From assembly GCA_052388515.1 (NCBI GenBank), contig JBQTHZ010000022.1:25102-89101 (forward strand): a DNA stretch of 64,000 nucleotides, in the 5' to 3' direction. The position numbers were made by a program, and so were the translations under genes. The notes below the pieces were generated by a model. That model was not told the origin of the DNA. It was given only the letters and a program-made list of their open reading frames with translations, and did no database searches. This DNA comes from Chloroflexota bacterium (lineage in GTDB: Bacteria > Chloroflexota > Limnocylindria > QHBO01). This document shows positions 5,476-63,639 of this stretch, piece after piece (the stretch's first letter is position 1; each line of letters begins with the position of its first letter).

Positions 5476-5578
5476 GGCCCGCAACGGTAGCGCACCATGC
5501 CAGACCGATGCGCCCGGCGCGGCCGCTGATACCCTTCCATGCGTGCCCGCACCGCTCGGCTCGGAAGCCGTCCACGAC

Positions 5579-6445: not shown

Positions 6446-6448
6446 GGC

Positions 6449-43851: not shown

Positions 43852-43855
43852 CGGT

Positions 43856-44131: not shown

Positions 44132-44150
44132 GCGTTGTCAGTCCGAGAAG

Positions 44151-45685: not shown

Positions 45686-45692
45686 CGATATC

Positions 45693-46952: not shown

Positions 46953-46966
46953 CGGTCCCTTCGGTC

Positions 46967-47823
<857 letters not shown>

Positions 47824-47827
<4 letters not shown>

Positions 47828-48321
47828 GAATTCCTTGCTTCCTGCGTGGTCATGGCTGAGTGCTGTGCTGCGCGCCTGCGGCGAACCGCAGGCGGATAGG
47901 GCGGGCCTCCGGCCGTGGCGATCACCTCGGCCAGGTTCGTTGCCCCGAGTGTCGAGGAGAGTGACTCGTACACGCGCTGGAAGATCTCGTGCACGCTGCA
48001 TGGCTGCGGCCGGTCGCAGTGCTCGAGATCATCGGCGCCGGCGCACGGCATCTCGAGCAGCGGGCCCTCGAGCGCACGGACCGCCTCGGTCATGGCGATC
48101 TCGTCCGCCGGTCGAGCGAGGCGGTAGCCGCCCGCCTGCCCGCGCGTGGCGCTCACGATGCCGGCACGGCGAAGGTCACCGACGAGCTGCTCCAGGTAGG
48201 CATGCGGCAGCTTCTCGCGCTTCGCGATCTCGGTCAGCGACAGGCAGGTGTCCTCGGGATCGAGGCGCGCCAGCGTGACGAGGACCCGGATGCCGTACTC
48301 GGTCCGCGTGCTGATCTTCAT
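47824..48321 (-). CDS. Rrf2-family (IscR/SufR-like) transcriptional regulator with three clustered Cys
   Basis: N-terminal wHTH STRTEYGIRVL..LSLTEIA. Cys cluster CAGADDLEHCDRPQPC. Confidence 0.8.
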
Positions 48322-48325
48322 CGGT

Positions 48326-48658
48326 TCACAGCCTCACCCGGACCTCGTCGCCATCGACGATCGTCTCGTAGGCGTTGACGGCCCGAACCGGCGGAAGGGC
48401 CAGGACGCGGCCACTGAACAGGTCGAAGCGGCCGCCGTGACGCGGGCACTCGACGCCGTTGTCATCCAGCTCGCCCTCCCCCAGGGTCCCGCCGTCGTGG
48501 GTGCAGACGTTGTCGATGGCACCCCATTCGCCGTCCTCGGTCAGGCCGATGCAGAGCGAGCGGCCGTCCACCTCCACCACGCGGACGTTGCCCGGCTCGA
48601 CGTCGCCAGCCCGCGCGACGGTCACGAAACCGCCGACCGGCTGCTCGAGGGCGGTCAT
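48326..48658 (-). CDS. Rieske [2Fe-2S] ferredoxin
   Basis: CTHDGG...CPRHGGRF, the CxH...CxxH Rieske boxes. 110 aa. ATG overlaps the sufD TGA. Confidence 0.8.
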   Translation of the reverse strand: MTALEQPVGGFVTVARAGDVEPGNVRVVEVDGRSLCIGLTEDGEWGAIDNVCTHDGGTLGEGELDDNGVECPRHGGRFDLFSGRVLALPPVRAVNAYETIVDGDEVRVRL

Positions 48659-49899
48659 GCGAGCACCTCGGTCGTACCGATGCGCCGCGCCAGGGCGTCG
48701 AGGATGCGCTCGCGAATCGTCTCGTCCTCGATCTTCGCCACCACCTGCTCGAAGAAGCCGCGTACGATCATGCGCTGCGCAGCGTCCGCGTCCAGACCCC
48801 GGCTCTGGGCGTAGAAGAGGGTCGTCGGATCGATGGCCCCCGCCGTGGCACCGTGGCCGCAGCGCAGGATGTCGTTGGCCTCGATCTCGAGCACCGGGAT
48901 CGGCTCGGCGCCGGCCTGCGGGCTCAGCAGCAGGTTGCGGCACTCCTGGTAGCTGCTCGTCTGCTTCGTGCCGTGGCGCACGTTGGTGACGCCGTAGAAG
49001 GAGGCGTGGGCCCGATCGTAGAGCGCGGAGAGGTAGAGCAGGTCGCTGGTGGTGTGATCGGCGGCCAGGTCCTGGACGGTATTGATGTCGATCTGCTGAT
49101 CGTCGCCGGCGGCCAGCAGGCCGAGCACCTTCGACGTCCCTCCCTTGCCGGTCATCAGGACGTCCAGCCCCAGCTTCGTCACCTTCGAGCCCACCTCGGC
49201 GTTGAGCGTCGTGACGACGGCGTCCTGCCCACACACGACGCGCTCGGCGCCGATCCGCCACGCGCCATCGCCCAGCTGCTGCAGGCTGGCGTAGCGGACG
49301 CGGGCAGCCTGCCCCGCATGCACGTCGGCGATGCCGCCGAACCATGCGGAGGCGCCGTCGGGTGAGACGACCTCCTCGAGCAGTGTCACGCTGCTGCCCT
49401 CTTCCGCCACCACGAGAGAGACTGGGTAGAAGCTGACATCGCCGCGGGCCAGGACCTGACGCGCCACCAGCGTTCCGTCGACGGTCACGCCGCGTGGGAC
49501 GTGGCAGAACAGACCTCCCGTCCAGGCCGCGTGCGCCAGTGCCCAGAAGTGCGCGTGTGAGCTGGGCCCGTCCGCCTGGCCAAGGGAGCGTTGCACGAGC
49601 TCGGGATGTTCACGGACGGCCGTCTGGAGATCGGTCAGGATGACCCCGGCCTCGGCCGCGCCGGGCGGAAGATGGGTCTCGAGGGCCGGCGCGTCGAGCA
49701 GCAGCTCGGCGCCGCGTGGCAGGCCCTCGAGTGACGTTCGCCGCCATTCCTCTTCCTGGCCGGTGGGCGGCGGGGTCTGCTCGGCAGCCTCCCACCATCG
49801 TGCGCGAAGCGCGCGCAGCCAATCCGGCTCGTCGAACCGGTCGCTGATGCGCCCGATCGCGTCGACGTCGAGCGCCGATGCGGTCTGCGTGAGGGTCAT
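48655..49899 (-). CDS. sufD: Fe-S cluster assembly protein SufD
   Basis: SufB/D family fold, C-terminal motif LFYAQSRGLD. Confidence 0.85.
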   Translation of the reverse strand: MTLTQTASALDVDAIGRISDRFDEPDWLRALRARWWEAAEQTPPPTGQEEEWRRTSLEGLPRGAELLLDAPALETHLPPGAAEAGVILTDLQTAVREHPELVQRSLGQADGPSSHAHFWALAHAAWTGGLFCHVPRGVTVDGTLVARQVLARGDVSFYPVSLVVAEEGSSVTLLEEVVSPDGASAWFGGIADVHAGQAARVRYASLQQLGDGAWRIGAERVVCGQDAVVTTLNAEVGSKVTKLGLDVLMTGKGGTSKVLGLLAAGDDQQIDINTVQDLAADHTTSDLLYLSALYDRAHASFYGVTNVRHGTKQTSSYQECRNLLLSPQAGAEPIPVLEIEANDILRCGHGATAGAIDPTTLFYAQSRGLDADAAQRMIVRGFFEQVVAKIEDETIRERILDALARRIGTTEVLA

Positions 49900-49903
49900 C
49901 GGA

Positions 49904-51316
49904 TCAGCCGACCGCGCCTTCCATCTGAAGCTGGATGAGGCGGTTCATCTCGACCGCATACTCCATGGGCAGCTCCTTGACGATCGGCTCGATGAAGCCG
50001 TTGACGATCATGGCGGAGGCCTCCGCTTCCGACAGACCGCGGCTCATCAGGTAGAAGAGCTGCTCGGACCCGACCTTGGAAACCGTCGCCTCGTGACCGA
50101 TGGTCACGTTCTCCTCGTCGATCTCCATGTACGGGTACGTATCCGAGCGCGCGTCGTCGTCGAGGATCAGCGCGTCGCAGCGAACGGTCGACTTCGAGCG
50201 TTCGCAGCCGGGATAGACCTTGATCAACCCGCGGTAGGACGTGCGCCCGGTGCCTCGCGAGATGGACTTCGAGGTGATCAGGCTGGTCGTGTTGGGGGCC
50301 GCGTGGATGATCTTGCCGCCGGCATCCTGGTGCTGGCCGTCGCCGGCGAAGGCGATGCTGAGCACCTCGCCGTGCGCCCGCTCGCCGAGCAGGTAGATGG
50401 ATGGGTACTTCATCGTGACCTTCGAGCCGAGGTTGCCGTCGACCCACTCCATCACCGCATCCTCGTGCGCCACGGCGCGCTTGGTGACGAGGTTGTAGAC
50501 GTTCGAGCTCCAGTTCTGGATCGTCGTGTATCGGACCCGCGCGCCCTTCTTGACGATGATCTCGACGACCGCGCTGTGCAGGCTGGCGGTCGAATACGTC
50601 GGCGCGGTGCAGCCCTCGACGTAGTGAACGCTGGAACCCTCGTCCGCGATGATCAGCGTCCGCTCGAACTGGCCCATGTTCTGGGTGTTGATGCGGAAGT
50701 AGGCCTGCAGGGGCAGCTCGACGTGCACGCCCTTCGGCACGTAGATGAACGATCCACCCGACCAGACCGCGGTGTTCAGCGCGGCGAGCTTGTTGTCGTT
50801 GGCCGGGATGACCGTGCCGAAGTGCTCGCGGAACAGCTCGGGGTGCTCCTTGAGGGCCTGGTCGGTGCCCATGAAGATGACGCCCTGCTTCTCGAGGTCC
50901 TCGCGGATGTTGTGGTAGATGACCTCGGAGTCGTACTGGCCGCCGACGCCGGCGAGGTACTTCTTCTCCGCCTCCGGGATACCGAGCTTGTCATACGTGC
51001 GGCGGATGTAGTCGGGCACGTCATCCCACGACTGGGCGGCCCCCTCCTGGTTGCCGGTGACGTAGTAGTAGATGTCCTGGAAGTCGATCCCGGACAGGTC
51101 CGCACCCCACTTCGGCATCGGGCGCGCGTCGAAGTGCCGATACGCCTTCAGGCGAAGGTCGGTCATCCACGTCGGCTCGTCCTTGATGCGGCTGATCTCC
51201 GCCACGACCTCGGCGCTGATCCCCTTGGCGAAGGTCGTGCGAGGCTGCTCGGCATCGTGCCAGCCATACTTGTACGAGTCGGGAATCTGGGTCAGGGCGG
51301 GATTGGGAAGGGCCAT
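49904..51316 (-). CDS. sufB: Fe-S cluster assembly protein SufB
   Basis: SufB signatures KYGWHD and LFYLMSRGL, 470 aa. Confidence 0.9.
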
Positions 51317-51433
51317 GCGCTCCTCGCGGACTCACGCCGGAATCGCCTCGCGGAGCGAATCCCGACTGAATTGGTCGGTGTTACGAGCTCATTGTCCTGC
51401 ACCTCGCTCGTCCGGTCAACCGACCGGCGGTGG

Positions 51434-52597
51434 TCACCGTGCCGCAGCCGACACCTCCTGCAGGGACGCTCCGCCAGCCACGAGCCGGCGGCCGATATCG
51501 GCCGAGAGCGCACCATCGATGCTTGCCAGGCCGATCACGCGCTCGCCGTGACGGGAGGCGAGCAGCCGATCCCGGATCAGCCACTCCTCGGTCTCCCCTC
51601 CGTCCAGGGTGCCGATGACGTCCAGCGTTGCGCCGCCGATCTCGGTGAAGACCCACGGCGAGGGGACCGCGGGTACCGGCAACCCGATCATCGAGAGCGC
51701 CGCGCGCTCGCCTGCCTCACGCGCCGCGTGCCAGTGCTCGACGCGCTGACCGTTCACGCGGGCGACGTCGCCGGCCGCCCACACCGCCGGATGGTCCGTG
51801 CGCTGCCCGACGTCCACCAGGATCCCGTCTCGTGTCGCAATGCCGGCGGCCACCGCCAGCTCCTGGCGCGGAAGCACCCCGATTCCCGCCACGACGAACG
51901 TGGCGGGAAGGCGTTCGTCGTGGATCCAGGCCGCGTCGTCCGAAAGGCGGCTGATGGCGGACGCGAGGCGCAGCTCCACGCCGGTGCCGGCGAGCCGATT
52001 CGCTGCCCAGCCAGCCAGGCCGAGTCCCATCGTCCCACCCCACAGGCTGGATGACATCTCGACGACTGTCGGCCGCAGCCCGAGGGCGGCCAATGCGGAA
52101 GCGACCTCGAGGCCGATGAACCCGCCACCGACGACGACCGCCGGCGCGCCCGGCGCCGCAGCGATCGCCGCGGCGCGAATGCGGCGCGCGTCCGCCACGG
52201 TCCGCAGCGGCAACGCCGTCACGGCGCCCGGGATCCGGAGCCGGCGAAGCTCCGCTCCGGTAGCCAGCAGGCACCGTTCGAACGTGATGGATCGACCGTC
52301 GGACGTGGTCACTCGCCGCGCGTCGGGCTCGAGGCGGGTGACGTGCGCGCCGGTCCAGAGCTCGATGGAGCGCCGCGTGTACCACGAGCCGGACTCGGCA
52401 GCCAGCAGCTCGTCCGGCAGGTCGTCGCGGAGCAGCTCCTTGCTGAGCGGCGGACGGTTGTACGGTGGATGCTCCTCGGAACCGACGATCAGGATCGATC
52501 CGTCGAACCCGTGGCGCCGGAGCGTGCGGGCGCAGCGAACCGACGCGACGCCGCCCCCGACCAGGAGGACGTCGACTGCATGGTCAGTCCGGGGCAT
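51434..52597 (-). CDS. FAD/NAD(P)-dependent ferredoxin reductase (pyridine nucleotide-disulfide oxidoreductase family)
   Basis: FAD Rossmann VLLVGGGVASV and NAD Rossmann VVVGGGFIGLE. Ends 118 nt upstream of sufB on the same strand. Confidence 0.75.
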   Translation of the reverse strand: MPRTDHAVDVLLVGGGVASVRCARTLRRHGFDGSILIVGSEEHPPYNRPPLSKELLRDDLPDELLAAESGSWYTRRSIELWTGAHVTRLEPDARRVTTSDGRSITFERCLLATGAELRRLRIPGAVTALPLRTVADARRIRAAAIAAAPGAPAVVVGGGFIGLEVASALAALGLRPTVVEMSSSLWGGTMGLGLAGWAANRLAGTGVELRLASAISRLSDDAAWIHDERLPATFVVAGIGVLPRQELAVAAGIATRDGILVDVGQRTDHPAVWAAGDVARVNGQRVEHWHAAREAGERAALSMIGLPVPAVPSPWVFTEIGGATLDVIGTLDGGETEEWLIRDRLLASRHGERVIGLASIDGALSADIGRRLVAGGASLQEVSAAAR

Positions 52598-53621
52598 CGA
52601 CCATGTCCGCGCGCAGCATCGTCGGGACCAGGCGGTCGCGGAGAAGGCGCTGAAGACCAGCCGTCTGGCCGGTCATCACCAGCCAGCCCCGGACGAGGGG
52701 CGGGCCTGCCGCCCGCGCAAGGCTGTGAGCGCGAGCCATGGGATCCCGCCAGCGATCGATGAGCGCATCCGTGCGCGGCGCGTCCGTGCCCAGTGCGGCG
52801 ACCTCGCGACGAACGTTCCGGAGCGGCGAGGCACGTGCCGCAGCGGCAAACGAAGGTGCCAGCTCGTCCAGCGCGCGGTGGACGGCCACGATCCGCGCCC
52901 CGTTCCACCGCGTCCCGACGCCGCGCCCCATGCGCTCGATCTCGTACGCGAGCTCGTGATCGGCCAGCAGGACCTCGCGGCCCACGGCGGCCAGCCCGCA
53001 GTCGACTGTGGTCTCCGGCGATGGGGACCACTCCGGAGCGGGGCGCCGCATGAGCTGGACGAGGTGCCGCCCGGGATACGCCTGCGTCGAGATCACGCGA
53101 ACGAGGCGATCGGCGGTCCACGCCGCCCCGCGGTTGAGGACGAGCGTGCCCGGGTCGAGCTTGGAGCGCCAGGCTTCGGCCGGTCGATCGACGAACTTCA
53201 GGCTCAGCGCATGGTCGACCGAGAGCTCCAGGTCCTCGGCGGCGCGACCCTGGAGCACCCGGAGCATCCCCTCGGCTGCCCGCTCGAGCGCACCGGCGAG
53301 GATGGTCATGCCGGCGTCGTGGGTGGCCAACCGCTCGCCCAGCGTGCCGGGACCGGCGAGGAGCTCGTCCAGGCGCCCCACTGCCGTGTCACTGACGGGC
53401 GGAGCGGAGCAATCGACGATCGATTCGAGATGCGGCTCGGACCCGTCCACGGCCCGGAAGGCGGCCGCCAGCGCACGAGCCTGGACGCGCAGCCAGCTCG
53501 AGTCGGCCTCGGCAGCGACCGCTTCCGCGTCGGCCGCAAGCCGGTCAGCGTCGAATGCCCCCTGCCGGGCGGCGCCGAACGCGGCGACGAGGCGCGCATA
53601 TCGGCCCAGGAGGTCATCCAC
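52584..53621 (-). CDS. Hypothetical protein
   Basis: Long ORF with coding-like composition and no recognisable motif. Overlaps the reductase start by 14 nt. Confidence 0.4.
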   Translation of the reverse strand: MDDLLGRYARLVAAFGAARQGAFDADRLAADAEAVAAEADSSWLRVQARALAAAFRAVDGSEPHLESIVDCSAPPVSDTAVGRLDELLAGPGTLGERLATHDAGMTILAGALERAAEGMLRVLQGRAAEDLELSVDHALSLKFVDRPAEAWRSKLDPGTLVLNRGAAWTADRLVRVISTQAYPGRHLVQLMRRPAPEWSPSPETTVDCGLAAVGREVLLADHELAYEIERMGRGVGTRWNGARIVAVHRALDELAPSFAAAARASPLRNVRREVAALGTDAPRTDALIDRWRDPMARAHSLARAAGPPLVRGWLVMTGQTAGLQRLLRDRLVPTMLRADMVDAPD

Positions 53622-53656
53622 TCCCCCATGCTACCGGCGCGGCTAGACTCGGTCCG

Positions 53657-54520
53657 ATGCCGCTCCCCGATGGCCTCCGCCTGCGCGATGCCGACGCCGC
53701 CGACCTGTCGCGCATCGCCAGGCTGCGCGAAGGGGTCGGCTGGTCGGTGCATGACTGGGCGCTGCGTGCCGTGCTCCAGGGACCGCAGGCACGATGCCTG
53801 GTCGTGGTCGACGACAACGAGCTCGTGGTCGGCGTCGGCTCGGGGATCAGCTATGGAAGGCTCGGGTTCGTCGGCAACATGGTCGTGGACACCGACCATC
53901 GCCGGCGGGGAATCGGCGCCGCGATCCTGCGGGCGGTGGTCGGGTTCCTGGAGGAACGCGGCACGACACGCATGGAGCTGTATGCGACCGCCGACGGGCG
54001 ACCGCTCTACGCGCGCCACGGCTTCGAGCTGACCGGACCGAGTGCCATGGTTCGCGTCCCTCGCGGATTGGTCGTGCGCGTCGACGATGGGATCACCCTG
54101 GACGAAGCCAGCGCGGATGCCGACGCCGACCTGGCCGCGTACGATGCGCCGCGCTTCGGTGGCGACCGCGGCATGGTGCTCCGAGAGGCGCTCGACGATC
54201 CCGACAGGCCGCTCATCCTCGCTCGACGGGATGGCGAGATCCTGGGGTACGGCTGGATCCGCCCGGACGGCGAGCGCATCGGTCCCCTTGTGGCCGATAC
54301 GCCCGAGGTCGCCGCAGCCATCATCGGCGATGCGTTCGACCGGATGCCACGGGCCGATGAGCTGACGCTGAATCTGCCGTCCGACAACGTCGCCGGCGCT
54401 GCCTGGCTGGCAGCGCGTGGCGCGGACCTTGCCCCGTGGGACGGCCGGATGGCGCGCGGACCTGAGATCCCCCGCCGCGGCGACACGATCTACGGCAACG
54501 TGGTGGGGGCGCTCGGGTGA
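53657..54520 (+). CDS. GNAT family acetyltransferase (two-lobed)
   Basis: RRRGIGAAILRAV acetyl-CoA motif. Start at the ATG 53657. Confidence 0.65.
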   Translation: MPLPDGLRLRDADAADLSRIARLREGVGWSVHDWALRAVLQGPQARCLVVVDDNELVVGVGSGISYGRLGFVGNMVVDTDHRRRGIGAAILRAVVGFLEERGTTRMELYATADGRPLYARHGFELTGPSAMVRVPRGLVVRVDDGITLDEASADADADLAAYDAPRFGGDRGMVLREALDDPDRPLILARRDGEILGYGWIRPDGERIGPLVADTPEVAAAIIGDAFDRMPRADELTLNLPSDNVAGAAWLAARGADLAPWDGRMARGPEIPRRGDTIYGNVVGALG

Positions 54521-55443
54521 CCATGACGACCGGCCTCGTGCTCCGAGCGAGGTCCGGGTTCTACACGATCGCGACCGCCGAAGGCGACCTGGTCGAGGCG
54601 CGGCTGCGCGGGCGCGTGAAGAAGGAGCGGCAAGCTTCCGACCTCGCCGTGATCGGCGACCGGGTCACAATGGAGCGCCTCGACGACGGGACGGGTGCCA
54701 TCGACTCCGTCGAGCCGCGCCACGGCCGCTTCAGCCGTCGCCAGCCCGGCCCGCGCGGCGCGTGGCGCGAGGACGTGATCGTGGCCAACCCGGACCTGGT
54801 GGTCGTCGTGTTCTCGGCCGACCGGCCGCCACCGAACCCCCGCCTCATCGACCGTTTTCTCGTCATCGCGGAGTACAACGAGGTCCCGGTGTTGCTGGTG
54901 GCCAACAAGGTCGACCTGGTCGGGACCGATGCAGCCCGCTCCCTGTTCGGGCCGTACGAACGCATCGGGTATGACCTGCTGTATACCAGCGCCAGGACCG
55001 ATATCGGTCTCGAGGAGCTGCGTGGTCGCCTGGCCCGCAAGCTGGCGATCGTCACCGGCCCGTCGGGCGTCGGCAAGTCGACGCTGTTGAACGCCTTGCA
55101 GCCGGGTCTTCAGCTCGCGACCGCCGAGGTTTCCGACGTGCTCAGCGGTAAGGGAAAGCACACCACCACCCACGCCGAGCTGCATCCGCTCGATGGATCC
55201 GGCGGCGGATACGTCGCCGATACGCCGGGCATCCGGGAGCTTGGCCTGTGGCAGATTCCATCCACCGAGCTGGCTTCGTGCTTCCCCGAGTTCCGCCCGC
55301 ATCTCGGCGCGTGCGCGTTCAACGACTGCACCCACCTGCACGAGCCGCGCTGCGGCCTTCGTGCGGCCGTGGATGCGGGTGTGGTCTCCGAGGCTCGGTA
55401 CGACTCGTATCGGCGACTGGCGACCGGCGATCTGGCGGGCTGA
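54517..55443 (+). CDS. rsgA: Ribosome small-subunit biogenesis GTPase RsgA
   Basis: OB domain, GTPase in circularly permuted order (NKVDL before GPSGVGKST), and zinc finger CAFNDCTHLHEPRC. Confidence 0.85.
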   Translation: MTMTTGLVLRARSGFYTIATAEGDLVEARLRGRVKKERQASDLAVIGDRVTMERLDDGTGAIDSVEPRHGRFSRRQPGPRGAWREDVIVANPDLVVVVFSADRPPPNPRLIDRFLVIAEYNEVPVLLVANKVDLVGTDAARSLFGPYERIGYDLLYTSARTDIGLEELRGRLARKLAIVTGPSGVGKSTLLNALQPGLQLATAEVSDVLSGKGKHTTTHAELHPLDGSGGGYVADTPGIRELGLWQIPSTELASCFPEFRPHLGACAFNDCTHLHEPRCGLRAAVDAGVVSEARYDSYRRLATGDLAG

Positions 55444-55444
55444 G

Positions 55445-56143
55445 ATGGAGATCGCCCCGGGCGTCCATCACGTGCGTCTGCCGGGGGTGGACACGTTCAT
55501 CGTCGCCGAGCCCGGACGACCCGTGACGCTGATCGACGCCGGCATGTTCTGGTCGCGCTCGCCGATCGAGCGGCACCTGCGGCGGATCGGACGCCGCCGG
55601 GACGAGATCGAGCGGATCGTCTGCACGCATGGGCACCCGGACCACATCGGAGGCATCCGGCGGTTGCTCCAGGGACGGCCGGAGGCATCGGTCCTGATGC
55701 ATTCGGCAGACATCGCCGGCCTGCGGATCAGCCCGCGCCAGGCACTGCGCCGGACCACGGACGGCGTCGCGCGACGCGTCCGGCTGCTCGATCTCCTCAC
55801 GCGAGCTCCAGAACGTCTCGAGCCGATCGAGGACGGCGACGAGATCCCGGTGCTGGGCGGGCTCAGGGTGGTCCATACGCCCGGGCATACTCCGGGAAGC
55901 ATCTGCCTCTATGCCGAGCGTCATCGGCTGCTCTTCACCGGCGATGTGCTTCAGGTGATCAGGGGACGCCTCACCTATGCCAACGCCTTCTTCAGCCACG
56001 ACATGAACCAGGCGCGGGCGACCCTGGCGAGGCTGGCGGAGCTCGATGTCGAAACGATCGCCATGGCGCACTACCGCCCCTGGCGCGACCACGCAGGTCT
56101 CGCGCTCCGCGCCCTGGCGGCCGGCAGCACGATCACGCGGTAG
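55445..56143 (+). CDS. MBL-fold metallo-hydrolase
   Basis: HxHxDH motif CTHGHPDHIGG and HTPGHTPG. Confidence 0.75.
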   Translation: MEIAPGVHHVRLPGVDTFIVAEPGRPVTLIDAGMFWSRSPIERHLRRIGRRRDEIERIVCTHGHPDHIGGIRRLLQGRPEASVLMHSADIAGLRISPRQALRRTTDGVARRVRLLDLLTRAPERLEPIEDGDEIPVLGGLRVVHTPGHTPGSICLYAERHRLLFTGDVLQVIRGRLTYANAFFSHDMNQARATLARLAELDVETIAMAHYRPWRDHAGLALRALAAGSTITR

Positions 56144-56300
56144 CCCTGGCCCGACGTCGTTCGATCAGTACTCAAGTGCTGTTGAGGCGGATGGCAGCGG
56201 CAATCACTGTCTGGACACCGGCCCAATCCAGCGTCAATATCGCGCTGGCCGATCATCTGGGGGCCGATCAAGGTCCGACGTCGGACGGAGGAATCGACCG

Positions 56301-57314
56301 TTGCCCGAGCAATCCCTCGAAGGGATGCCCGGAGTCGCCGAACGAGCGAGCCGGGATGTCCGGACGCGCCCCTCGACGGAGCACGGCCCCGCACCTATCG
56401 AGCATCGCCCCGCGGATCCCCGCCTGGTCGGTTTCGCCGATGAGCCGCGTGACCACCGTCTCTACCGTCGCATGCGGTTCATTCGGCGGTTCGAAGAGCG
56501 CCTGCTCGACCTGTTCGAAGAGGGCGTGCTCAACGGCACGACGCACGCGTGCATCGGCCAGGAGGCGGACTGCGTCGGCGTGATCGAGCATCTGCGGCCG
56601 GGCGACCACATCTTCAGCAATCACCGTTGCCATGGCCACTACCTCGCCTGGACCGGCGACGCGATCGGGCTGCTTGCCGAGATCATGGGCAAGGCGGCAG
56701 GCGTGTGCGGCGGGATCGGTGGCAGCCAGCACCTGTGCACGAGCGGGTTCAAGTCCAACGGCATCCTCGGCGGCACGGCCCCCGCCGCGGCAGGGATCGC
56801 GCTTGGCATGAAGCTCTCGAAGAGCGACGCCGTCAGCGTCGCCTTCATCGGCGACGGGACCTTCGGGGAGGGGGTCCTGTACGAGACGCTGAACATCGCC
56901 TCGCTCTGGGCGTTGCCCCTCCTGATCGTCGTCGAGAACAACGGCTACGCGCAGAGCACGCCGATCGCGGCCAACCTGGCCGGCGACATCCCCGCCCGGA
57001 TCCGGGCGTTCGGCATCCAGGCATCGCACCTTGACTCGACCGACGTCCGCGAGATCGAGGCCGAGGCAGCACGGCTGGTTGGCGCCGTGCGCGAGGCGCG
57101 GACCCCGCGAGCCCTCGTGATCGACACGTACCGGCTCTGCCATCACTCGAAGAGCGACGACAACCGACCCGAGGCGGAAGTCGCCGAACGGTGGCTGCGC
57201 GAGCCGCTCGTCATCCAGGCTGCGCATCTCACCGAGGAGAGTCGCCTGGGCATCGACCGCGCGGTGGAGGACGCCATCGACGAGATGATCGACGCGGCCC
57301 GGGCACTGCCCTGA
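56301..57314 (+). CDS. ThDP-dependent 2-oxoacid dehydrogenase E1 component, alpha subunit
   Basis: ThDP motif GDGTFGEGVLYETLN...LIVVENNGYAQST. Start uncertain: TTG 56301 with a GGAGGA RBS, or ATG 56325. Confidence 0.8.
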   Translation: MPEQSLEGMPGVAERASRDVRTRPSTEHGPAPIEHRPADPRLVGFADEPRDHRLYRRMRFIRRFEERLLDLFEEGVLNGTTHACIGQEADCVGVIEHLRPGDHIFSNHRCHGHYLAWTGDAIGLLAEIMGKAAGVCGGIGGSQHLCTSGFKSNGILGGTAPAAAGIALGMKLSKSDAVSVAFIGDGTFGEGVLYETLNIASLWALPLLIVVENNGYAQSTPIAANLAGDIPARIRAFGIQASHLDSTDVREIEAEAARLVGAVREARTPRALVIDTYRLCHHSKSDDNRPEAEVAERWLREPLVIQAAHLTEESRLGIDRAVEDAIDEMIDAARALP

Positions 57315-58321
57315 TGCTCGTTCATGACCTGAACGCTGCCCTCGGGCAGCTCCTTCGCGAGGACCCGCGGGTGGTCGTCATGGGCGAGGACATCGCCGAC
57401 CCCTACGGCGGCGCCTTCAAGGTGACGCGTGGCCTGACCGACGCGGTGCCGGAGCGTGTCCTCACCACGCCGGTCAGTGAGGGCGCCATCGTCGGCGTGG
57501 CCGCCGGGTTGGCCATGTCGGGCTATCGGCCGATCGTGGAGGTCATGTTCGCCGACTTCCTGACCCTCACCTTCGACCAGGTCGTCAACCACGTGACGAA
57601 GTACCCCGCCATGTACGACGGCAAGGTGACCTGTCCGGTGATCATTCGCAGCCCGTCTGGAGGCCACCGCGGCTACGGGCCGACGCACAGCCAGAGCCCG
57701 GAAAAGCACTTTCTCGGCGTTCCGAACCTCCTGGTCGTGGCCTCGTCCCCGTATCACGATCCGCTCGCGGTGTACCGGGCCCTCCTCCAGCGGGACGATG
57801 CGGTGCTGTTCGTCGAGCACAAGCTCCTCTATCCGGAGCCGCTCTCGGCACCCGTGGGCGGTCGCATCGGGGAGGCGCTCGGCCGCGAGGAGTCCTCAGC
57901 GGGCTGCCTTCCGACGGTCGCGCTCTCGTGGGTCCCGCCCGAGGATTGCACGGTCACCGTCCTGGCCTACGGGTACACGGCGCTGATCGCCGCGCGGGTG
58001 CTCGAGCGTCTTGCGATCGAAGAGGAGATCTTCGGCGAGCTGCTGGTACCGGCCCAGATTGCGCCGATGGACCTGGGGCCGGTCGAGGCCTCCGTGCGTC
58101 GGACGCGCAGCCTGCTCACCATCGAGGAGGGGACGGCGGGCTGGGCGTGGGGAACCGAGATCGCCCAGCAGATCGGCCACCGGCACTTCGGCCAGCTGCG
58201 CCGGCCAGTCGACGTGCTTGCCAGCGCCGCGACCATCATCCCCAGCAGCCGTGAGCGGGAGGAGCTGGTGCTCGTCAGCCCTGCCGACATGCGGTCCCGC
58301 ATCCGCGAGGCGGCGACATGA
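57314..58321 (+). CDS. 2-oxoacid dehydrogenase E1 component, beta subunit (transketolase-like)
   Basis: VVMGEDIADPYGGAFKVTRGL...PVSEGAIVGVAAGLAMSG are E1-beta signatures. Start overlaps the E1-alpha stop. Confidence 0.85.
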   Translation: MLVHDLNAALGQLLREDPRVVVMGEDIADPYGGAFKVTRGLTDAVPERVLTTPVSEGAIVGVAAGLAMSGYRPIVEVMFADFLTLTFDQVVNHVTKYPAMYDGKVTCPVIIRSPSGGHRGYGPTHSQSPEKHFLGVPNLLVVASSPYHDPLAVYRALLQRDDAVLFVEHKLLYPEPLSAPVGGRIGEALGREESSAGCLPTVALSWVPPEDCTVTVLAYGYTALIAARVLERLAIEEEIFGELLVPAQIAPMDLGPVEASVRRTRSLLTIEEGTAGWAWGTEIAQQIGHRHFGQLRRPVDVLASAATIIPSSREREELVLVSPADMRSRIREAAT

Positions 58322-59460
58322 CGCCGGTCCTGATTCCCTGGACCGATGTCAACAGCGAGGCGGCCACGGTGGTTGCGTGGCACGTCCCCGATCGCTCGCG
58401 CGTGAGCTCGGGTTCTGCGCTGGTGGACGTCGAGACGAGCAAGGCCGCGCTGGAGATCGAGGCCGGTGCAGACGGCGTCCTCCTGCAGCTGGTTGCTGCC
58501 GGCCACGACGTGACCGTCGGTGAACCCGTCGCCATCGTCTTCGACGACGAGACAGCGCTGGAGGCATTCGTCCACGCAAGAGCAACGGAAGCCTCCACCT
58601 CTCTCGACGCCGGCGGCGATGGCGCGGGCCCTCGGGCGACGGCCAAGGCGCGGGAGCGTGCCGACGAGCTTGGCGTGGATCTCGCCACCATCCCGGCAAC
58701 CGGGCTGATCACCGTGCGACATGTCGAGGAGGCGGCCGGCTCCGCCCCCGAGCCCGTCCAGGACGCGGCCGAGCCCCTGGCGGGCGACGACAGGACAGAG
58801 CGGCTCCTGCTGATCGGCGCGGGCCTGGGCGCCACCCAGGTGCTCGACATCCTGGCCGGCACGCCCGGCCAATCGGCGATCGGCATCGTCGACGACAACA
58901 CGTCGTTCTGGGGTCGCACCATCCGCGGGCTGCCCGTGGTCGGCGGCAGCGCCGCCATCGCCGCGCTGTGGGAACGATCGGCCATGGATGCCGTCGTGAT
59001 CACGATCAGCACGTCGATCGAGGCCCGGGCGCGACTTCGCGGCATCTGCCAGGCCGCCGGGATCCCGCTCGCCAATGTCGTGGACGCGACCGCGAAGATC
59101 GCCACGGGGGTCCGGATGGGGAGCGGCAACGTAATCTGTGCGTTCGTCCAGGTCGGAACCGAGACCGTGCTCGGTGACAACAACTTCCTGTCGGCGTTCA
59201 ACAGCTTTGACCACCACAACGTCATCGGCTGCGACATCTCCACCGGGCCGGGATGCATGACCTCGGGCGAGGTCGTGATCGAGGATGGCGTACGGCTGGG
59301 CACCGGCGTCTTCGTGGAGCCCAAGCTCACGCTCGGAGCGCGTGCGGTGGTCGCCTCGGGTTCGGTCATCGTCCACTCGGTGCCTGCCGATCACGCGGTG
59401 AAGACCAAGGTCGTCACCACGACCGTGGTTCCCATCCGGCGCGGCGGATCGTCCGCGTGA
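58318..59460 (+). CDS. Lipoyl domain + E3-binding domain fused to a PglD/NeuD-type left-handed beta-helix acyltransferase (atypical E2)
   Basis: Lipoyl-lysine context VDVETSKAALEIEA, a PSBD-like segment, then LLLIGAGLGATQVLDIL (the PglD/NeuD N-terminal Rossmann-like subdomain) and hexapeptide repeats carrying a DHH-type His. No chloramphenicol-acetyltransferase-like E2 core is present. ATG overlaps the E1-beta TGA. Confidence 0.7.
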   Translation: MTPVLIPWTDVNSEAATVVAWHVPDRSRVSSGSALVDVETSKAALEIEAGADGVLLQLVAAGHDVTVGEPVAIVFDDETALEAFVHARATEASTSLDAGGDGAGPRATAKARERADELGVDLATIPATGLITVRHVEEAAGSAPEPVQDAAEPLAGDDRTERLLLIGAGLGATQVLDILAGTPGQSAIGIVDDNTSFWGRTIRGLPVVGGSAAIAALWERSAMDAVVITISTSIEARARLRGICQAAGIPLANVVDATAKIATGVRMGSGNVICAFVQVGTETVLGDNNFLSAFNSFDHHNVIGCDISTGPGCMTSGEVVIEDGVRLGTGVFVEPKLTLGARAVVASGSVIVHSVPADHAVKTKVVTTTVVPIRRGGSSA

Positions 59461-60137
59461 GCGACACCGGCGACGGCGACGACGGCCGCACGAGGTCGGA
59501 GATCGTCGTCACGGCGCTTGTCATCTGGGCACCGTTGCTGGTGGTTCTCGGTGGAGCGCTGCTGCTCACGTCGACCACGGAGGTGACCGTCCGCCAGCTC
59601 ACACAGGACCCGACGACGGTGCTCGGCGGTCCGTTCTATGTCGGTGCGCTGTCGAACCTCGGCAATGTGCTCTGGGCGGCCGCCGCGACGGCCTGCCTGG
59701 TCACCGCCCTGGCGCTGCGCTCGCTCATCGACGCTGGGTGGCGCCGGTTCATGCTCGTCTCGGGGATCTTCACAACGGTCCTGCTGGCGGACGATCTCTT
59801 CCTCATCCACGACGAGATCCTGCCGCGGTACGCCGGCATCAGCGGCGAGCTGTACGGCATCGTGTACGTGGTCGGCATGCTGGCCTACCTCGGCGGCTTC
59901 CGCCGGCGGATCGCAGAGACCAACTGGACGCTTCTCCTGGCTGCGCTCGTGTGCTTCGGTATCTCCACCGTGGTCGATCTCGGGTCGTCGCGACTCAGCG
60001 AGATCGTCGCATCGTCGATCGTGATCCTCGCCGAGGACGGGGCGAAGATCCTGGGAATTGGCACCTGGCTCGCCTACTTCGTGTCGGTGAGCCGACAGGC
60101 GATCGTCAGCGGGCCGCCGCGGTTCCAGACCGCCTGA
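59457..60137 (+). CDS. Hypothetical polytopic membrane protein, translationally coupled to the atypical E2
   Basis: GTG start overlaps the TGA (GTGA). About 6 hydrophobic helices. Confidence 0.5.
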   Translation: MSDTGDGDDGRTRSEIVVTALVIWAPLLVVLGGALLLTSTTEVTVRQLTQDPTTVLGGPFYVGALSNLGNVLWAAAATACLVTALALRSLIDAGWRRFMLVSGIFTTVLLADDLFLIHDEILPRYAGISGELYGIVYVVGMLAYLGGFRRRIAETNWTLLLAALVCFGISTVVDLGSSRLSEIVASSIVILAEDGAKILGIGTWLAYFVSVSRQAIVSGPPRFQTA

Positions 60138-60146
60138 CGGGTTGCT

Positions 60147-61781
60147 TCACGCCTTCGATCGGGAGAGCGCGCCGCGATACAGGTCCAGGAGCCGCGTGCT
60201 CAGGCCGGGCCCGGAGCTGACGAGATCACGGAATGCATCGGCCTCGAGCGCGAGGAGCATGCCCGCCGCGGTGGCGGTCACGGTCGCGGTCCGCGGCGAC
60301 TGGCGAAGGAGCCCGATCTCTCCGAAGACGTCGCCCGGCCCGAGGTCGCGCAGGTGGACCGCCGTGCCGCCGGCGTCCGGCACCTGGGTCACGGCGACGC
60401 TGCCCTCGCCGATGACGTAGAACCGATCGGCGGCATCCCCCTGGCGGATGATCACGGTGCCCTGGTCCACCGGGACCTCCTCCAACTGGCGGGCGGCGGC
60501 CTCCAGGCGTGCGGCCGGCAACCCGGCGAAGATGGGATGCTCGAGCATCCGTGCGCGGGACGGATCCAGGGCTGCGGGCCGGGACTCTCGCGGCGCGAGG
60601 GCAAAGGCGGTCACGACGCCGACCACGGTGATCACTGCGGAGCCGATGAGGACCGGACCCACGCCGAACGCGCCGGCGATCAGCGGCATGACCAATGATC
60701 CAAGCGCGTAGAGAATCGCAGACGTCGTCTGCAGGACACCCATGGCGCGCCCTCGAAGCTCGTCGGGCACGATGCGCTGGATCAGCGTCGTGTTCACCAC
60801 GTCGAGCAGGAGGAGTCCACCGACCGCAATGCCAATGGCCAGCATGGCAGTCACGAGGTCGCCGGCCAGCGCGAGCCAGGCGAGACCGATCCCACCGAAC
60901 ATGCCGCCCAGGACCAGCGGCACCCCGAGACGACGAGCAAGCAGCGCCCCGGCCGCGATCCCGGTCACGACCCCTCCGACCCCGGTCGCTGCGTTGAGAA
61001 ATCCGGTACCGGCCTCGCCCGCGTTGAGCACGTCGACCGCGATGACGACCGTCAGCACTCCCACGCCTCCGCCCACGATGCTCGTCGTCGAGTCAAGGAT
61101 GAGTGGCCCCGCCAGCGGCCGGACGAGCTGGCGCCAACCGGCGGCAGGAGGTGCCGCGGCGTCCTCGCTGGTGGTCACCGGGCTCGCCGCGCGCGGCACG
61201 GGAAGCCGCCACAGGACGACCGCCACCACAGCGAACGAGATCGCGTTCAACAGGAACGCGAACTCGAGCCCACCACTCGCGAGCAGGATCCCGGCGAGAG
61301 CGGGGCCAACGATGAAGGCGACGTTGTCGAGGGTTGCCCACGCACTGTTTGCCGGGCCGAGGTCGCTCTCGTCCACGAGCATCGGCAGGAGCGCCGCGAT
61401 CGCCGGACCGAAGAACGTGGAGAAGCAGGCCGCAACGATGGCGAGGCCGACGATCGCGAACGTCGGCGCGTCCACGAGGACGGCCGCCACCAGGATCAGC
61501 ATCAGGACGCCGCGCGCCACATCCGTGACCAGCAGGACCATGCGGCGGTCGAAGCGGTCGGCCACGATTCCCGCAGGCACCGAGAGCAGGACGTACGGCA
61601 GGATGCGTGCAGCACCCACGATCCCCAGGAGGACCGCGGACTGGCTCTCGGCGTAAACGGCGACCAGGACGGCCACCAGGTAGAGCCAGTCACCGATCCC
61701 GGAGATGAACTCACCGGCCAACAGCCGTGCGAGCGCTCGATTTCGACGGAAGAGCTCGACGTAGACGCGGAGCAGGCTCAC
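60147..61781 (-). CDS. MFS transporter fused to a C-terminal cyclic-nucleotide-binding (cNMP) domain
   Basis: 12 TM MFS core with motif GIVADRFDRR, then a CAP-family cNMP domain (FGEIGLL...RTATV). GTG start at 61781 with a GAGGAG RBS, overlapping the S8 TGA. Confidence 0.75.
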   Translation of the reverse strand: MSLLRVYVELFRRNRALARLLAGEFISGIGDWLYLVAVLVAVYAESQSAVLLGIVGAARILPYVLLSVPAGIVADRFDRRMVLLVTDVARGVLMLILVAAVLVDAPTFAIVGLAIVAACFSTFFGPAIAALLPMLVDESDLGPANSAWATLDNVAFIVGPALAGILLASGGLEFAFLLNAISFAVVAVVLWRLPVPRAASPVTTSEDAAAPPAAGWRQLVRPLAGPLILDSTTSIVGGGVGVLTVVIAVDVLNAGEAGTGFLNAATGVGGVVTGIAAGALLARRLGVPLVLGGMFGGIGLAWLALAGDLVTAMLAIGIAVGGLLLLDVVNTTLIQRIVPDELRGRAMGVLQTTSAILYALGSLVMPLIAGAFGVGPVLIGSAVITVVGVVTAFALAPRESRPAALDPSRARMLEHPIFAGLPAARLEAAARQLEEVPVDQGTVIIRQGDAADRFYVIGEGSVAVTQVPDAGGTAVHLRDLGPGDVFGEIGLLRQSPRTATVTATAAGMLLALEADAFRDLVSSGPGLSTRLLDLYRGALSRSKA

Positions 61782-62623
61782 GCGCGCGCTTCTCCTCGTC
61801 CACGGGGGTGGCGGCGACCGGGATTGTCGGCGACGCTGGTCAGGATCGCCTTGACCTCGAACGGGCTGAGGCCCGGGTGCTTCGACAGGATGAGTGCCAC
61901 GAGTCCGGCCAGGTGCGGCGCCGCGAAGCTGTTGCCGGTGGCAATGGTGCTCCCGCCGTCCTTCCACGCGATCGGAACGTCGACGCCCCATGCCCCGAAC
62001 TCCACCGGCGGCGCGGGATTGTAGTAGATCCGCCAGGGGTCCGGCTCGGCGTGGGCAGCCACCGAGAAGACCGATGAAAAGAGCGAGGGATAGCTGGGCG
62101 CCGGGACGTTGTTCGCAGCGCTCACCAGCGCGGTACCGCGAAAGTACGCGCGATCGGCGAGGTCATGGAAGACCGGGTAGAGCGACTCGCTCTTCGACGA
62201 CAGGCTCAGGTTGCAGACCTGCAGTCCCTGCTCGATCGCCCATTCAAGACCGGCGGCGAAGGCGGTTCCCTTCCCGCGCAGGTCCGGGCCGAGGACACGA
62301 ATCGAGACGAGCTCGACGTCAGGCGCCAGGCCGACGATGATCGCGCCACACGCCGTGCCGTGACCGAACATGTCGACTGCCTGGTCCGGAACGACGACGG
62401 GCTCCTCTCCACCGATCTCGACCGTCACGTTCTCGACGACCCGACCGTGCAGGTCAGGGTGATCGTTCTCGAGCCCCGAGTCGATGATCCCGACGCGAAC
62501 GCCCTTGCCCGTGGCGCCACCCCAGGCCCATTCGCGGGTCAGGCCGACCAGGCGAAGGGGGCGGCGCAGTGCGTGCTTCGGATCCGCGAACGGCTCCGAC
62601 CAGGCCGGGAGCTGGTCGGTCAC
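61778..62623 (-). CDS. Intracellular S8 family subtilisin-like serine peptidase (no signal peptide)
   Basis: Catalytic triad blocks IIDSGL, HGTACG and GNSFAAP. 281 aa. ATG overlaps the GAF-protein TGA. Confidence 0.8.
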   Translation of the reverse strand: MTDQLPAWSEPFADPKHALRRPLRLVGLTREWAWGGATGKGVRVGIIDSGLENDHPDLHGRVVENVTVEIGGEEPVVVPDQAVDMFGHGTACGAIIVGLAPDVELVSIRVLGPDLRGKGTAFAAGLEWAIEQGLQVCNLSLSSKSESLYPVFHDLADRAYFRGTALVSAANNVPAPSYPSLFSSVFSVAAHAEPDPWRIYYNPAPPVEFGAWGVDVPIAWKDGGSTIATGNSFAAPHLAGLVALILSKHPGLSPFEVKAILTSVADNPGRRHPRGRGEARA

Positions 62624-63399
62624 CGCCCGGCTCGGGGACGCCTGGTGCGTCCGGCATGCATCGCCACCACGTCGAGGATGTCGGTCAGGAGCGCCGTCTC
62701 GCGATCGGTGAGCGAACGCAGGCGGGCAACCTGGTCGACGAGGCGCCAGAACGGGGCCTCGTCGTCCACGTCGAGGTCGTTGGTCGCGGCGGCCACGAGG
62801 TCGTCGACCTGTGCCTCGTCGAGGTCAGGGCCGACCTGCGCAAGGACGCTGCGCAGCAGGCGCTCAGTATCGCGCTGAACGCGGGCCGCACCGATGGCAA
62901 CCGTCGCCTGCGCGGCGAACACACCGAGCAGCTCCATGTCATTCAGCGAAAAGGTCGCTGACCCACGCTTGTCGAGCACCTGCAGCACGCCGACCGTGCC
63001 CTGCTCGTCCAGGAGCGGCGCGGCAGCGATCGATCGGGGAACGTAGCCCGTCTGCTCGGCGGCGTCGCGATTGAATCGAGGGTCGTTCGCGACGTCCGAA
63101 AGGGACAGTGCCTGACCGGTCGAGTAGACGAATCCCGCGATGCCCTGCGTCGGCGGGACGGTCAGCCCGACCGCACCCGCCCCCTGCTCGCCGGCAGCGA
63201 CGCGGAACTCGAGCCGATCGGGATCCTGCTCGAACAGCGCGATCGATGCCGCCTCGGCGTCGAAGAGACGAACGGTCGCGTCGACGATGCTCTGCAGCAG
63301 GCGCGTCTCGACATCCCCGGTGAGGCGTCGCCCGATCGCAGAACGCCGCGCCGCCGCAACGAGTGCGGCGAGCGCGGCATCGGCCTGTTGGTTGGCCAC
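62620..63399 (-). CDS. GAF-domain protein
   Basis: GAF fold signature region (ASIALFE...GIAGFVYSTGQAL...DPRF), about 170 aa, then an acidic C-terminal tail. Confidence 0.65.
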   Translation of the reverse strand: MANQQADAALAALVAAARRSAIGRRLTGDVETRLLQSIVDATVRLFDAEAASIALFEQDPDRLEFRVAAGEQGAGAVGLTVPPTQGIAGFVYSTGQALSLSDVANDPRFNRDAAEQTGYVPRSIAAAPLLDEQGTVGVLQVLDKRGSATFSLNDMELLGVFAAQATVAIGAARVQRDTERLLRSVLAQVGPDLDEAQVDDLVAAATNDLDVDDEAPFWRLVDQVARLRSLTDRETALLTDILDVVAMHAGRTRRPRAGR

Positions 63400-63420
63400 C
63401 AGCGCTACATCAACGCGGGC

Positions 63421-63639
63421 TCAGGAGAGCTTAGAGAGATGGCCCTCGGTGTCGTCGTCATCGCCGGCCTTGGGGAGATACGGTCCGTGGCCCTCGGTGT
63501 CCTCGTCGAGCTTCCTGGTGTCGTCGGTCTGGTCCGTCATGATGTGTCCCTCTACTGCGTCGTCGTCAAATGCCTCGCCCCCGAGCGAACCCGGTCGCGA
63601 AAAGCCCTCCATCGGCGGCTGCCGCCGGTAGTTATCCAT
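63421..63639 (-). CDS. Small acidic protein with three D(T/V)EGH repeats
   Basis: GGAGG RBS 9 nt upstream of ATG. The 72-aa product contains AVEGH, DTEGH and DTEGH. Confidence 0.55.
   Translation of the reverse strand: MDNYRRQPPMEGFSRPGSLGGEAFDDDAVEGHIMTDQTDDTRKLDEDTEGHGPYLPKAGDDDDTEGHLSKLS

Follow-up and report, generated by a model that had tools for sequence, protein, structure and literature searches.

A lipoyl-bearing PglD/NeuD-type acyltransferase encoded with 2-oxoacid dehydrogenase E1 subunits: a candidate module for coenzyme A-independent N-acylation of amino sugars

RESULTS

Four overlapping genes encode an E1 pair, a lipoyl-bearing fusion protein, and a membrane protein

We analyzed a 64-kb stretch of DNA from a soil Chloroflexota bacterium (contig JBQTHZ010000022.1, positions 25,102 to 89,101; hereafter the window), in which four co-directional, overlapping genes on the plus strand encode the alpha and beta subunits of a thiamine diphosphate (ThDP)-dependent 2-oxoacid dehydrogenase-type E1, a 380-aa fusion protein, and a 226-aa membrane protein. 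The fusion protein, which carries an E2-like lipoyl arm on a PglD/NeuD-type acyltransferase, is the main subject here. The E1-alpha stop codon TGA (57312-57314) shares its A with the E1-beta ATG at 57314 (TGATG, 57312-57316), the fusion ATG at 58318 overlaps the E1-beta stop at 58319-58321 (ATGA, 58318-58321), and the GTG start of the membrane-protein gene at 59457 overlaps the fusion stop at 59458-59460 (GTGA, 59457-59460). An earlier note on this DNA had described four genes with these three overlaps, and the sequence bore the description out exactly. The NCBI annotation gives identical starts for the second, third, and fourth genes (E1-beta, fusion, and membrane protein); its names for MGQ0607180-83 are "alpha-ketoacid dehydrogenase subunit beta", "biotin/lipoyl-containing protein", "hypothetical protein", and "MFS transporter".

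The E1-alpha gene (56325-57314, +) encodes the ThDP-binding subunit (Pfam E1_dh, 4e-45), and the E1-beta gene (57314-58321, +) encodes a 335-aa product, the same as in the NCBI annotation, with pyrimidine-binding and transketolase C-terminal domains (Transket_pyr, 1.9e-27; Transketolase_C, 1.4e-11). The start of E1-alpha is uncertain. The frame is open from 56046, family conservation starts only near 56424, homologues align from approximately residue 36-39 of the product begun at 56301, and none of the three candidate products had an exact database match. ATG at 56325 is at least as likely as TTG at 56301 and is preferred, with TTG possible; the start at 56301 is the one point on which the earlier description is corrected. 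In 52 family sequences of E1-alpha, the GDG...NN ThDP motif and the histidine of YRxxHHSxSD were conserved, as were the HSQ histidine and the GED..PYGGAFKVT motif in 65 sequences of E1-beta. In the E1 of pyruvate dehydrogenase (PDH) and branched-chain 2-oxoacid dehydrogenase (BCKDH), the conserved histidines of the two subunits serve in the reductive acylation of lipoamide. The domains and motifs expected of a heterotetrameric ThDP-dependent E1 were all present (E1_dh, Transket_pyr, Transketolase_C, the ThDP motif, and the alpha and beta histidines). Both subunits stayed well below the cut-offs of the pyruvate dehydrogenase E1 equivalogs (TIGR03182/NF006667): E1-alpha scored 221.7 bits against TIGR03182 (cut-off, 393.85), and E1-beta scored 157.1 (cut-off, 321). 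The best PDB match of E1-alpha was human PDH E1-alpha (1e-39), and the nearest PDB relatives of E1-beta were the BCKDH E1-beta subunits of T. thermophilus and P. putida. The E1 substrate could not be assigned because the scores lie under all equivalog cut-offs and the PDB neighbors are split between PDH (alpha) and BCKDH (beta).

The fusion protein keeps an E2-type arm and has no E2 catalytic core

The fusion gene (58318-59460, +) was resolved into four parts using Pfam, NCBIfam, AlphaFold2 (AF2), and Foldseek. An N-terminal lipoyl domain (aa 2-76, 58321-58545, +; Biotin_lipoyl at aa 16-73, 1.4e-7) is followed by a putative, E3_binding-like peripheral subunit-binding domain (PSBD; aa 104-141, 58627-58740, +), to which the Pfam E3_binding match was weak (aa 111-129, 0.004, below the gathering score). 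Then come a PglD_N-type Rossmann-like subdomain (aa 161-247, 58798-59058, +; PglD_N at aa 162-230, 1.3e-4, just below the gathering score) and a left-handed beta-helix N-acyltransferase domain with a conserved C-terminal tail (59059-59460, +; Hexapep at aa 319-351). In PglD-family enzymes, the PglD_N subdomain binds the nucleotide of the sugar substrate. The NCBIfam model TIGR03570 (NeuD/PglB/VioB) matched aa 162-361 with model positions 1-196 of 202 (5e-33), and the match of E2-type NCBIfam models was confined to the first ~100-140 residues.

Twenty-eight diverse family members, 51-90% identical to the window protein, were scanned one by one with Pfam. Biotin_lipoyl and Hexapep were found in all 28, PglD_N in 21, and E3_binding in 14 (best, 2e-5), and Pfam CoA_binding matched the N-terminal Rossmann-like subdomain in two. 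The 2-oxoacid_dh core (PF00198) was absent from the window protein and from all 28 members at E ≤ 0.01. The C-terminal domain is ruled out as a diverged form of that core: no member matched it in Pfam, and E2 chains in the PDB aligned only to aa 4-113.

In the alignment of the 28 members, the lipoyl-lysine K42 of the ETSKA motif (codon 58441-58443) was invariant, as were H299 (codon 59212-59214) and H300. Sequence comparison with PDB entries aligned H299 with the catalytic His141 of PerB (His125 of PglD), the residue mutated in entries 4eaa (H141N) and 4eab, and G317 with PerB Gly159. Invariant residues of the PglD_N subdomain include G167, G171, T173, Q174, D192, D193, W198, G199, and I230-S233. 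The C-terminal tail, VPxxHxVKTKVVTTTVVP, was also invariant and is poorly modeled. In the putative PSBD, the block AxKARxRAxELGVDL...GLITVxDVEAAA was conserved and, like the two helices of the model described below, fits such a domain, but the GxGGRI loop was shortened.

The AF2 model of the fusion (mean predicted local distance difference test score [pLDDT], 78) comprises a lipoyl beta-sandwich (pLDDT 86-98), a helical linker, a two-helix PSBD (helices 109-118 and 133-141), the Rossmann-like subdomain, and the beta-helix. The lipoyl part superposed on 1ghj and 3crk with TM scores of 0.77-0.80. A Foldseek search against the PDB returned lipoyl domains for the N-terminal part and PerB, the acetyltransferase domain of PglB (PglB-ATD), VioB, and WeeI for the C-terminal half, and the same four were the closest PDB sequences of that half (PerB, 9e-13). 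All four are N-acetyltransferases of nucleoside diphosphate (NDP)-4-amino-4,6-dideoxyhexoses. The architecture is therefore as the earlier note had described it, a lipoyl-PSBD::PglD/NeuD protein without the E2 core, and the assignment of the C-terminal domain as a PerB/PglB-ATD/VioB/WeeI-type amino-sugar N-acyltransferase with a catalytic histidine is supported by the PDB alignment and Foldseek.

The fusion is widespread and adjoins E1 genes in other genomes

The fusion family gave 673 hits in a database clustered at 90% identity. The top 120 were all 321-387 aa long, and almost all carried Biotin_lipoyl and Hexapep. A profile search of a library clustered at 50% gave 533 representatives at E ≤ 1e-30, and the top 150 were nearly all full-length. 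In 185,579 species genomes, the fusion occurred at 68 loci (numbered with the prefix L below), belonging to Chloroflexota, Actinomycetota, Deltaproteobacteria, Verrucomicrobiota, Planctomycetota, and Nitrospinota. Carriers include Limnocylindria, Gaiellaceae, Solirubrobacterales, Streptosporangiaceae, Microthrixaceae, one Mycobacterium metagenome-assembled genome (MAG), delta-proteobacterial MAGs, Thermoanaerobaculum, Verrucomicrobiota, Pirellulaceae, and Nitrospinales. There are also many Micromonosporaceae (Actinoplanes, Dactylosporangium, Micromonospora, Catellatospora, Rhizocola, Allorhizocola, and Catelliglobosispora). Cultured carriers are Actinoplanes regularis DSM 43151, A. utahensis NBRC 13244, Dactylosporangium spp., Micromonospora spp., Catellatospora sichuanensis, and Rhizocola hellebori.

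E1-alpha and E1-beta immediately preceded the fusion, in the same orientation, in ~60 of the 61 loci with enough upstream DNA (tblastn), across six or more phyla. The co-occurrence with E1 subunits that the earlier note had suggested looking for in other genomes was thus strongly positive. The sole exception to this otherwise obligate linkage was L005, in which a 107-aa C-terminal E1-beta remnant precedes the fusion and E1-alpha is absent. In this Limnocylindria MAG, a 234-aa lipoprotein-like open reading frame (ORF) and an S8 peptidase with S-layer homology (SLH) domains stand in the place of E1-alpha (4535-6872); the locus is either decaying or misassembled.

Four shorter proteins (P0242, P0290, P0315, and P0297; ~200-250 aa) matched only the PglD_N and beta-helix part of the family profile (E values of ~1e-59 to 1e-76). 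They carry the subfamily motifs GxGxxxxQV, ISTS, and VPxxxxVK and could represent free-standing or split forms of the system.

Glycan genes surround the trio in most other genomes

The ORFs of all loci were clustered and representatives were annotated; counts out of 55 refer to the loci of at least 12 kb. A DegT aminotransferase was present in 37 of the 55, often directly next to E1-alpha or the fusion, and 46 of the 55 had at least one glycan gene. The commonest neighbors were DegT/PseC/ArnB-like aminotransferases (39 loci, 51 copies), followed by NAD-dependent epimerase/dehydratases (25 loci) and UDP-GlcNAc 3-dehydrogenase-like GFO oxidoreductases (20 loci). Glycosyltransferases of families GT2 and GT4, Wzy_C, Wzx-type flippases, Bac_transf, NDP-sugar dehydrogenase, and Acyl_transf_3 also recurred. 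No second N-acyltransferase was found in the fully annotated clusters L066, L037, L062, and L007. In Limnocylindria, a block shared by L001, L007, L010, and L057 contains DegT, GT4, NDP-sugar dehydrogenase, dehydratase, E1-alpha, E1-beta, the fusion, the membrane protein, GT4, and a sulfotransferase, and its fusion orthologues are 64-70% identical to the window protein. These results substantially support the reading of E1, lipoyl arm, and N-acyltransferase as a functional trio.

In 20 loci (L034, 11461-14673, and 19 of Micromonosporaceae type), a secreted protein of ~1,070 aa with DMFA2_C (N,N-dimethylformamidase beta-like), two DUF4082, and Big_5/Big_7 domains lies beside the trio. Two families without a Pfam match (~421 aa and ~587 aa) are conserved alongside it.

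The membrane protein is specific to Limnocylindria

The fourth gene (59457-60137, +) encodes a 226-aa protein with six to seven predicted helices, modeled by AF2 as a helical bundle (pLDDT 89.6). It had no match in Pfam or NCBIfam and no fold match. Only 45 homologues were found, and D112, D113, H118, S170, D174, E193, D194, K197, and W204 were invariant. By tblastn across the loci, seven, all from Limnocylindria, had the protein next to the fusion, and no others did; more distant homologues (31-39% identity) lay in unrelated contexts. A universal fourth component is thereby ruled out, and neither a part as general partner of the fusion nor the transferase or flippase role suggested in the earlier note was supported. 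The membrane protein is a Limnocylindria-specific accessory to the module.

Genes around the operon in the window

The window has a G+C content of ~69%, and its nearest relatives are Candidatus Limnocylindria. Its gene inventory consists of housekeeping genes only. Promoter and terminator predictions for 55900-60400 gave no informative signal. Genes for a GNAT protein, RsgA, and an MBL hydrolase flank the four genes upstream; downstream, in convergent orientation, are genes for a major facilitator superfamily (MFS) transporter with a cyclic nucleotide (cNMP)-binding domain, an S8 peptidase, and a GAF protein. The ENA contig L072 is collinear with window positions 50747-63507 (95.7% identical) and ends at the same genes.

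The MFS transporter gene, with its C-terminal cNMP-binding domain (60147-61781, -), is convergent with the operon, and their stop codons are 9 bp apart. Two phyla have homologues (cluster c35) at most 10 kb away from the trio, one represented by L057 (Limnocylindria) and the other by L011 and L071 (Gaiellaceae/Actinomycetes). S8 (subtilisin-type) peptidases recur beside Limnocylindria modules that lack glycan genes nearby. In L004 and L005, an 840-aa form with SLH domains is encoded upstream of the E1-alpha position, and in the window (61778-62623, -) and L072 a 281-aa form is followed by the GAF protein.

At 42482-45365 (-), JAMM/Mov34-like, cysteine-synthase-like, and ThiF/MoeB-rhodanese-like proteins were recognized by eye from their N-terminal sequences only; these genes could form a sulfur-carrier cysteine pathway. 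A suf operon adjoins them (region 42482-51316, -), with SufS-like (45693-46952), SufD-like (48655-49899), and SufB (49904-51316) genes. Two long antisense ORFs, 57967-59394 (-; 475 aa) and 49640-52054 (+; 804 aa), overlap real genes and were rejected as the usual artifact of ~70% G+C DNA; similar ORFs also turned up in the ORF sets of several loci, as "antiFUS" clusters.

DISCUSSION

A proposed route from 2-oxoacid to N-acyl sugar

We judge it slightly better than an even bet that E1-alpha, E1-beta, and the fusion make up a small lipoate-dependent multienzyme that bypasses free acyl-coenzyme A (CoA) in N-acylating an amino sugar. The ThDP-dependent E1 (alpha2beta2) would decarboxylate a 2-oxoacid or cleave a ketol donor and reductively acylate lipoyl-K42. 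On the flexible arm, the resulting S-acyl-dihydrolipoyl thioester would then reach the active site in the beta-helix of the fusion itself, a domain expected to be a trimer as in PglD and PerB. There, H299 would deprotonate the amino group of an NDP-amino sugar, supplied by the neighboring aminotransferase and held by the PglD_N subdomain, and the amide would form. The PSBD would dock E1 and/or a housekeeping E3 (dihydrolipoamide dehydrogenase), which would reoxidize dihydrolipoamide with NAD+. The predicted net reaction is 2-oxoacid + NDP-amino sugar + NAD+ → N-acyl-amino sugar + CO2 + NADH. Lipoylation of K42, direct transfer, the sugar acceptor, and the recruitment of E3 are inferred here from domain content and gene context.

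Acyl transfer from lipoamide to an NDP-amino sugar is supported, without being proven, by the DegT/glycan context and by the finding of no other N-acyltransferase in the annotated clusters. LpxA and LpxD are examples of beta-helix acyltransferases able to take protein-tethered thioester donors. As to the acyl group, acetyl from pyruvate is the null hypothesis. The dedicated E1 points to a group for which there is no CoA pool, glycolyl or propionyl for example. A wider form of the proposal, to which we give an even chance, is that the beta-helix protein acts as a trimeric "E2" using its own acyl-lipoyl arm in place of acyl-CoA. In soil Actinomycetota, Chloroflexota, and others, it would couple oxidative 2-oxoacid decarboxylation directly to glycan tailoring and decorate surface polysaccharides with unusual N-acyl groups.

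Several observations weigh against this proposal. The fusion scored 114.3 bits against TIGR03570 and did not reach the curated cut-off of 160.8. Its PglD_N motifs depart from the canonical ones, with GAGLGATQ for GGGGHAK and ISTS for IGDN; with the score below the cut-off, these altered motifs mean that the acceptor could differ. The beta-helix part of the AF2 model is of moderate confidence (pLDDT 58-77). The use of acyl-lipoyl rather than acyl-CoA as the donor to this domain is a proposal only, and an E3 gene is not part of the module. The 64-kb window holds no amino-sugar or glycan genes (DegT, glycosyltransferase, Wzx, and Wzy included) by tblastn with 19 neighbor families, and the acceptor in this organism must therefore be made elsewhere in the genome. 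Other "orphan" loci without glycan genes nearby are L004, L006, L072, and the Gaiellaceae-type L008, L011, L012, and L071.

Alternative explanations

The beta-helix domain might instead be a non-homologous E2 core with CoA as the acceptor of the lipoamide-borne acyl group, in which case the module would amount to a 2-oxoacid or acetoin dehydrogenase that makes acyl-CoA, possibly for use by other enzymes. Consistent with this, the lipoyl domain, putative PSBD, and E1 are all kept, as in a true dehydrogenase complex, and the lipoyl part best matches the model of AcoC (NF011457), a protein that has a non-canonical alpha/beta-hydrolase core. The CoA_binding match on the Rossmann-like subdomain of 2 of the 28 members and the housekeeping contexts of the window and Gaiellaceae loci point the same way. 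However, the domain is most closely related to amino-sugar N-acetyltransferases that share its catalytic histidine, no member of this beta-helix family is known to use a thiol acceptor, and the linkage to DegT and glycan genes is strong, in clusters without another N-acyltransferase; we consider transfer to CoA unlikely. The C-terminal domain could also be an ordinary acetyl-CoA-dependent sugar N-acetyltransferase, with the lipoyl-PSBD part serving only to tether it to E1/E3 or to a PDH-type assembly for channeling, regulation, or scaffolding. The PglD-like domain is canonical throughout, catalytic histidine and oxyanion-hole position included, and sequence alone does not discriminate the donor. 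Yet a tether leaves unexplained both the invariant lipoyl lysine and a dedicated, always adjacent, translationally coupled E1 with its lipoamide-acylation histidines. The module also contains no canonical E2, so nothing would discharge the acylated arm, and this explanation seems to us quite unlikely.

Two further explanations concern what is modified. Sugar C-branching pathways are known to use pairs resembling PDH E1-alpha/beta (AviB1/AviB2 and Pau11/Pau12; PMC4425429), and genes of the dehydratase and 3-dehydrogenase types, which make keto sugars, are common in the neighborhoods. The E1 pair could accordingly act on the sugar itself, leaving the fusion a secondary role in redox or later acylation. 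Those systems, however, have no lipoyl protein (PMC4425429), whereas the lipoyl domain, putative PSBD, and lipoamide-acylation histidines are conserved here, and the most consistent neighbor is an aminotransferase, which implies an amine acceptor; action on the sugar carbon is highly improbable. In the orphan loci, including the window, an amine other than a nucleotide sugar may be the acceptor, such as a lipid-linked or cell-wall precursor processed jointly with the coupled membrane protein. The lack of DegT, glycosyltransferase, Wzx, and Wzy genes in 64 kb and the diverged PglD_N motifs fit such an acceptor. So does the translationally coupled membrane protein, whose invariant intramembrane acidic and histidine residues are suggestive of catalysis or ion binding. 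On the other hand, the clusters of L001, L007, and L010 combine glycan genes, the membrane protein, and fusion orthologues 64-70% identical to the window protein, making a change of acceptor unlikely, and the window represents 64 kb of a 97.6-kb contig from an incomplete MAG. We regard a non-sugar acceptor in these loci as rather improbable.

Our findings thus suggest a large, uncharacterized protein family for CoA-free acylation of cell-surface sugars, an activity that would be previously undescribed. If N-acylation from the lipoyl arm is correct, the known lipoate systems would gain one whose swinging arm takes over from CoA as the donor for an amide-forming transferase, and central 2-oxoacid metabolism would be tied directly to cell-surface glycan chemistry. 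Unrecognized N-acyl sugars would be predicted in Micromonosporaceae and many uncultured soil lineages. A CoA-independent N-acylation module would become available for glycoengineering, and a further kind of lipoate-dependent multienzyme would be added to the five classical ones.

Comparison with known systems

Like the E2 components of PDH, 2-oxoglutarate dehydrogenase (OGDH), and BCKDH, the fusion has an N-terminal lipoyl domain with its lysine at a hairpin tip, flexible Ala/Pro linkers, and a probable PSBD, and is encoded directly after E1-alpha and E1-beta. Unlike them, it lacks the chloramphenicol acetyltransferase (CAT)-like 2-oxoacid_dh core, in 28 of 28 members, and has a PglD-type Rossmann subdomain and a beta-helix instead. 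Its predicted acceptor is an amine rather than CoA, its core is probably trimeric and not built of 24 or 60 subunits, and the E3 gene is not in the module. AcoC of the acetoin dehydrogenase system (AcoABC) is a lipoyl protein that is paired with E1-alpha/E1-beta, has a C-terminal catalytic part other than the canonical E2 core, and makes acetyl-CoA in catabolism. The AcoC model NF011457 was the best E2-type match of the lipoyl part (5e-14), but only aa 2-99 of the fusion matched it, and the C-terminal half is unrelated.

With PerB, PglD, PglB-ATD, VioB, and WeeI, the fusion shares the PglD_N subdomain and left-handed beta-helix, the catalytic histidine, and the oxyanion-hole position, and its genomic partners are of the same types (DegT aminotransferase, dehydratase, and Bac_transf). 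It differs from them in its lipoyl-PSBD part, E1 partner, altered nucleotide-subdomain motifs, and distinct invariant C-terminal tail, and it lies below the TIGR03570 cut-off; the known enzymes use acetyl-CoA.

The closest functional precedents are QncN/QncL/QncM and SclQ1-4, with AcoC-type E2 and its non-canonical core as another. QncN/L/M and SclQ1-4 handle glycolyl units in natural-product pathways; their E1-alpha-like (~305 aa), E1-beta-like (~338 aa), and lipoyl-bearing acyltransferase (~386 aa) proteins send an acyl group formed with ThDP to an acceptor other than CoA (PMC6335953). The canonical E2 acyltransferase domain is kept, and the acyl group is delivered to an acyl carrier protein (ACP) encoded alongside (PMC6335953). 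By the published description, the sizes and order of the genes are very similar to those here, but a sugar N-acyltransferase domain takes the place of the canonical acyltransferase domain. No ACP gene was present among the recurrent annotated neighbor clusters, in a search for ACP that was not exhaustive. AviB1/AviB2 and Pau11/Pau12 are PDH E1-alpha/beta homologues recruited to sugar-modifying clusters for branched-sugar biosynthesis (PMC4425429). In contrast to the trio, these pairs add a C2 unit to carbon, without a lipoyl carrier or an N-acyltransferase partner, and E1-like pairs in sugar pathways are known only for such C-branching.

A 2018 review stated that only five lipoate-dependent complexes were characterized (PMC6067878). 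Known lipoate-dependent systems are few: PDH, OGDH, BCKDH, acetoin dehydrogenase, and glycine cleavage, and more recently LbpA of sulfur oxidation (PMC6067878). Publications on this architecture did not turn up in full-text searches pairing lipoyl with NeuD, PglD, hexapeptide, nucleotide sugar, or O-antigen terms; one apparent match was irrelevant, "lipoylation" there meaning fatty acylation. This result and the generic NCBI naming agree with the earlier note, whose author was aware of no characterized system built in this way. The fusion is like E2 in its arm, probable PSBD, and E1 partner and lacks the catalytic core that defines an E2; its fold is that of PglD and PerB, in a form unlike any characterized member.

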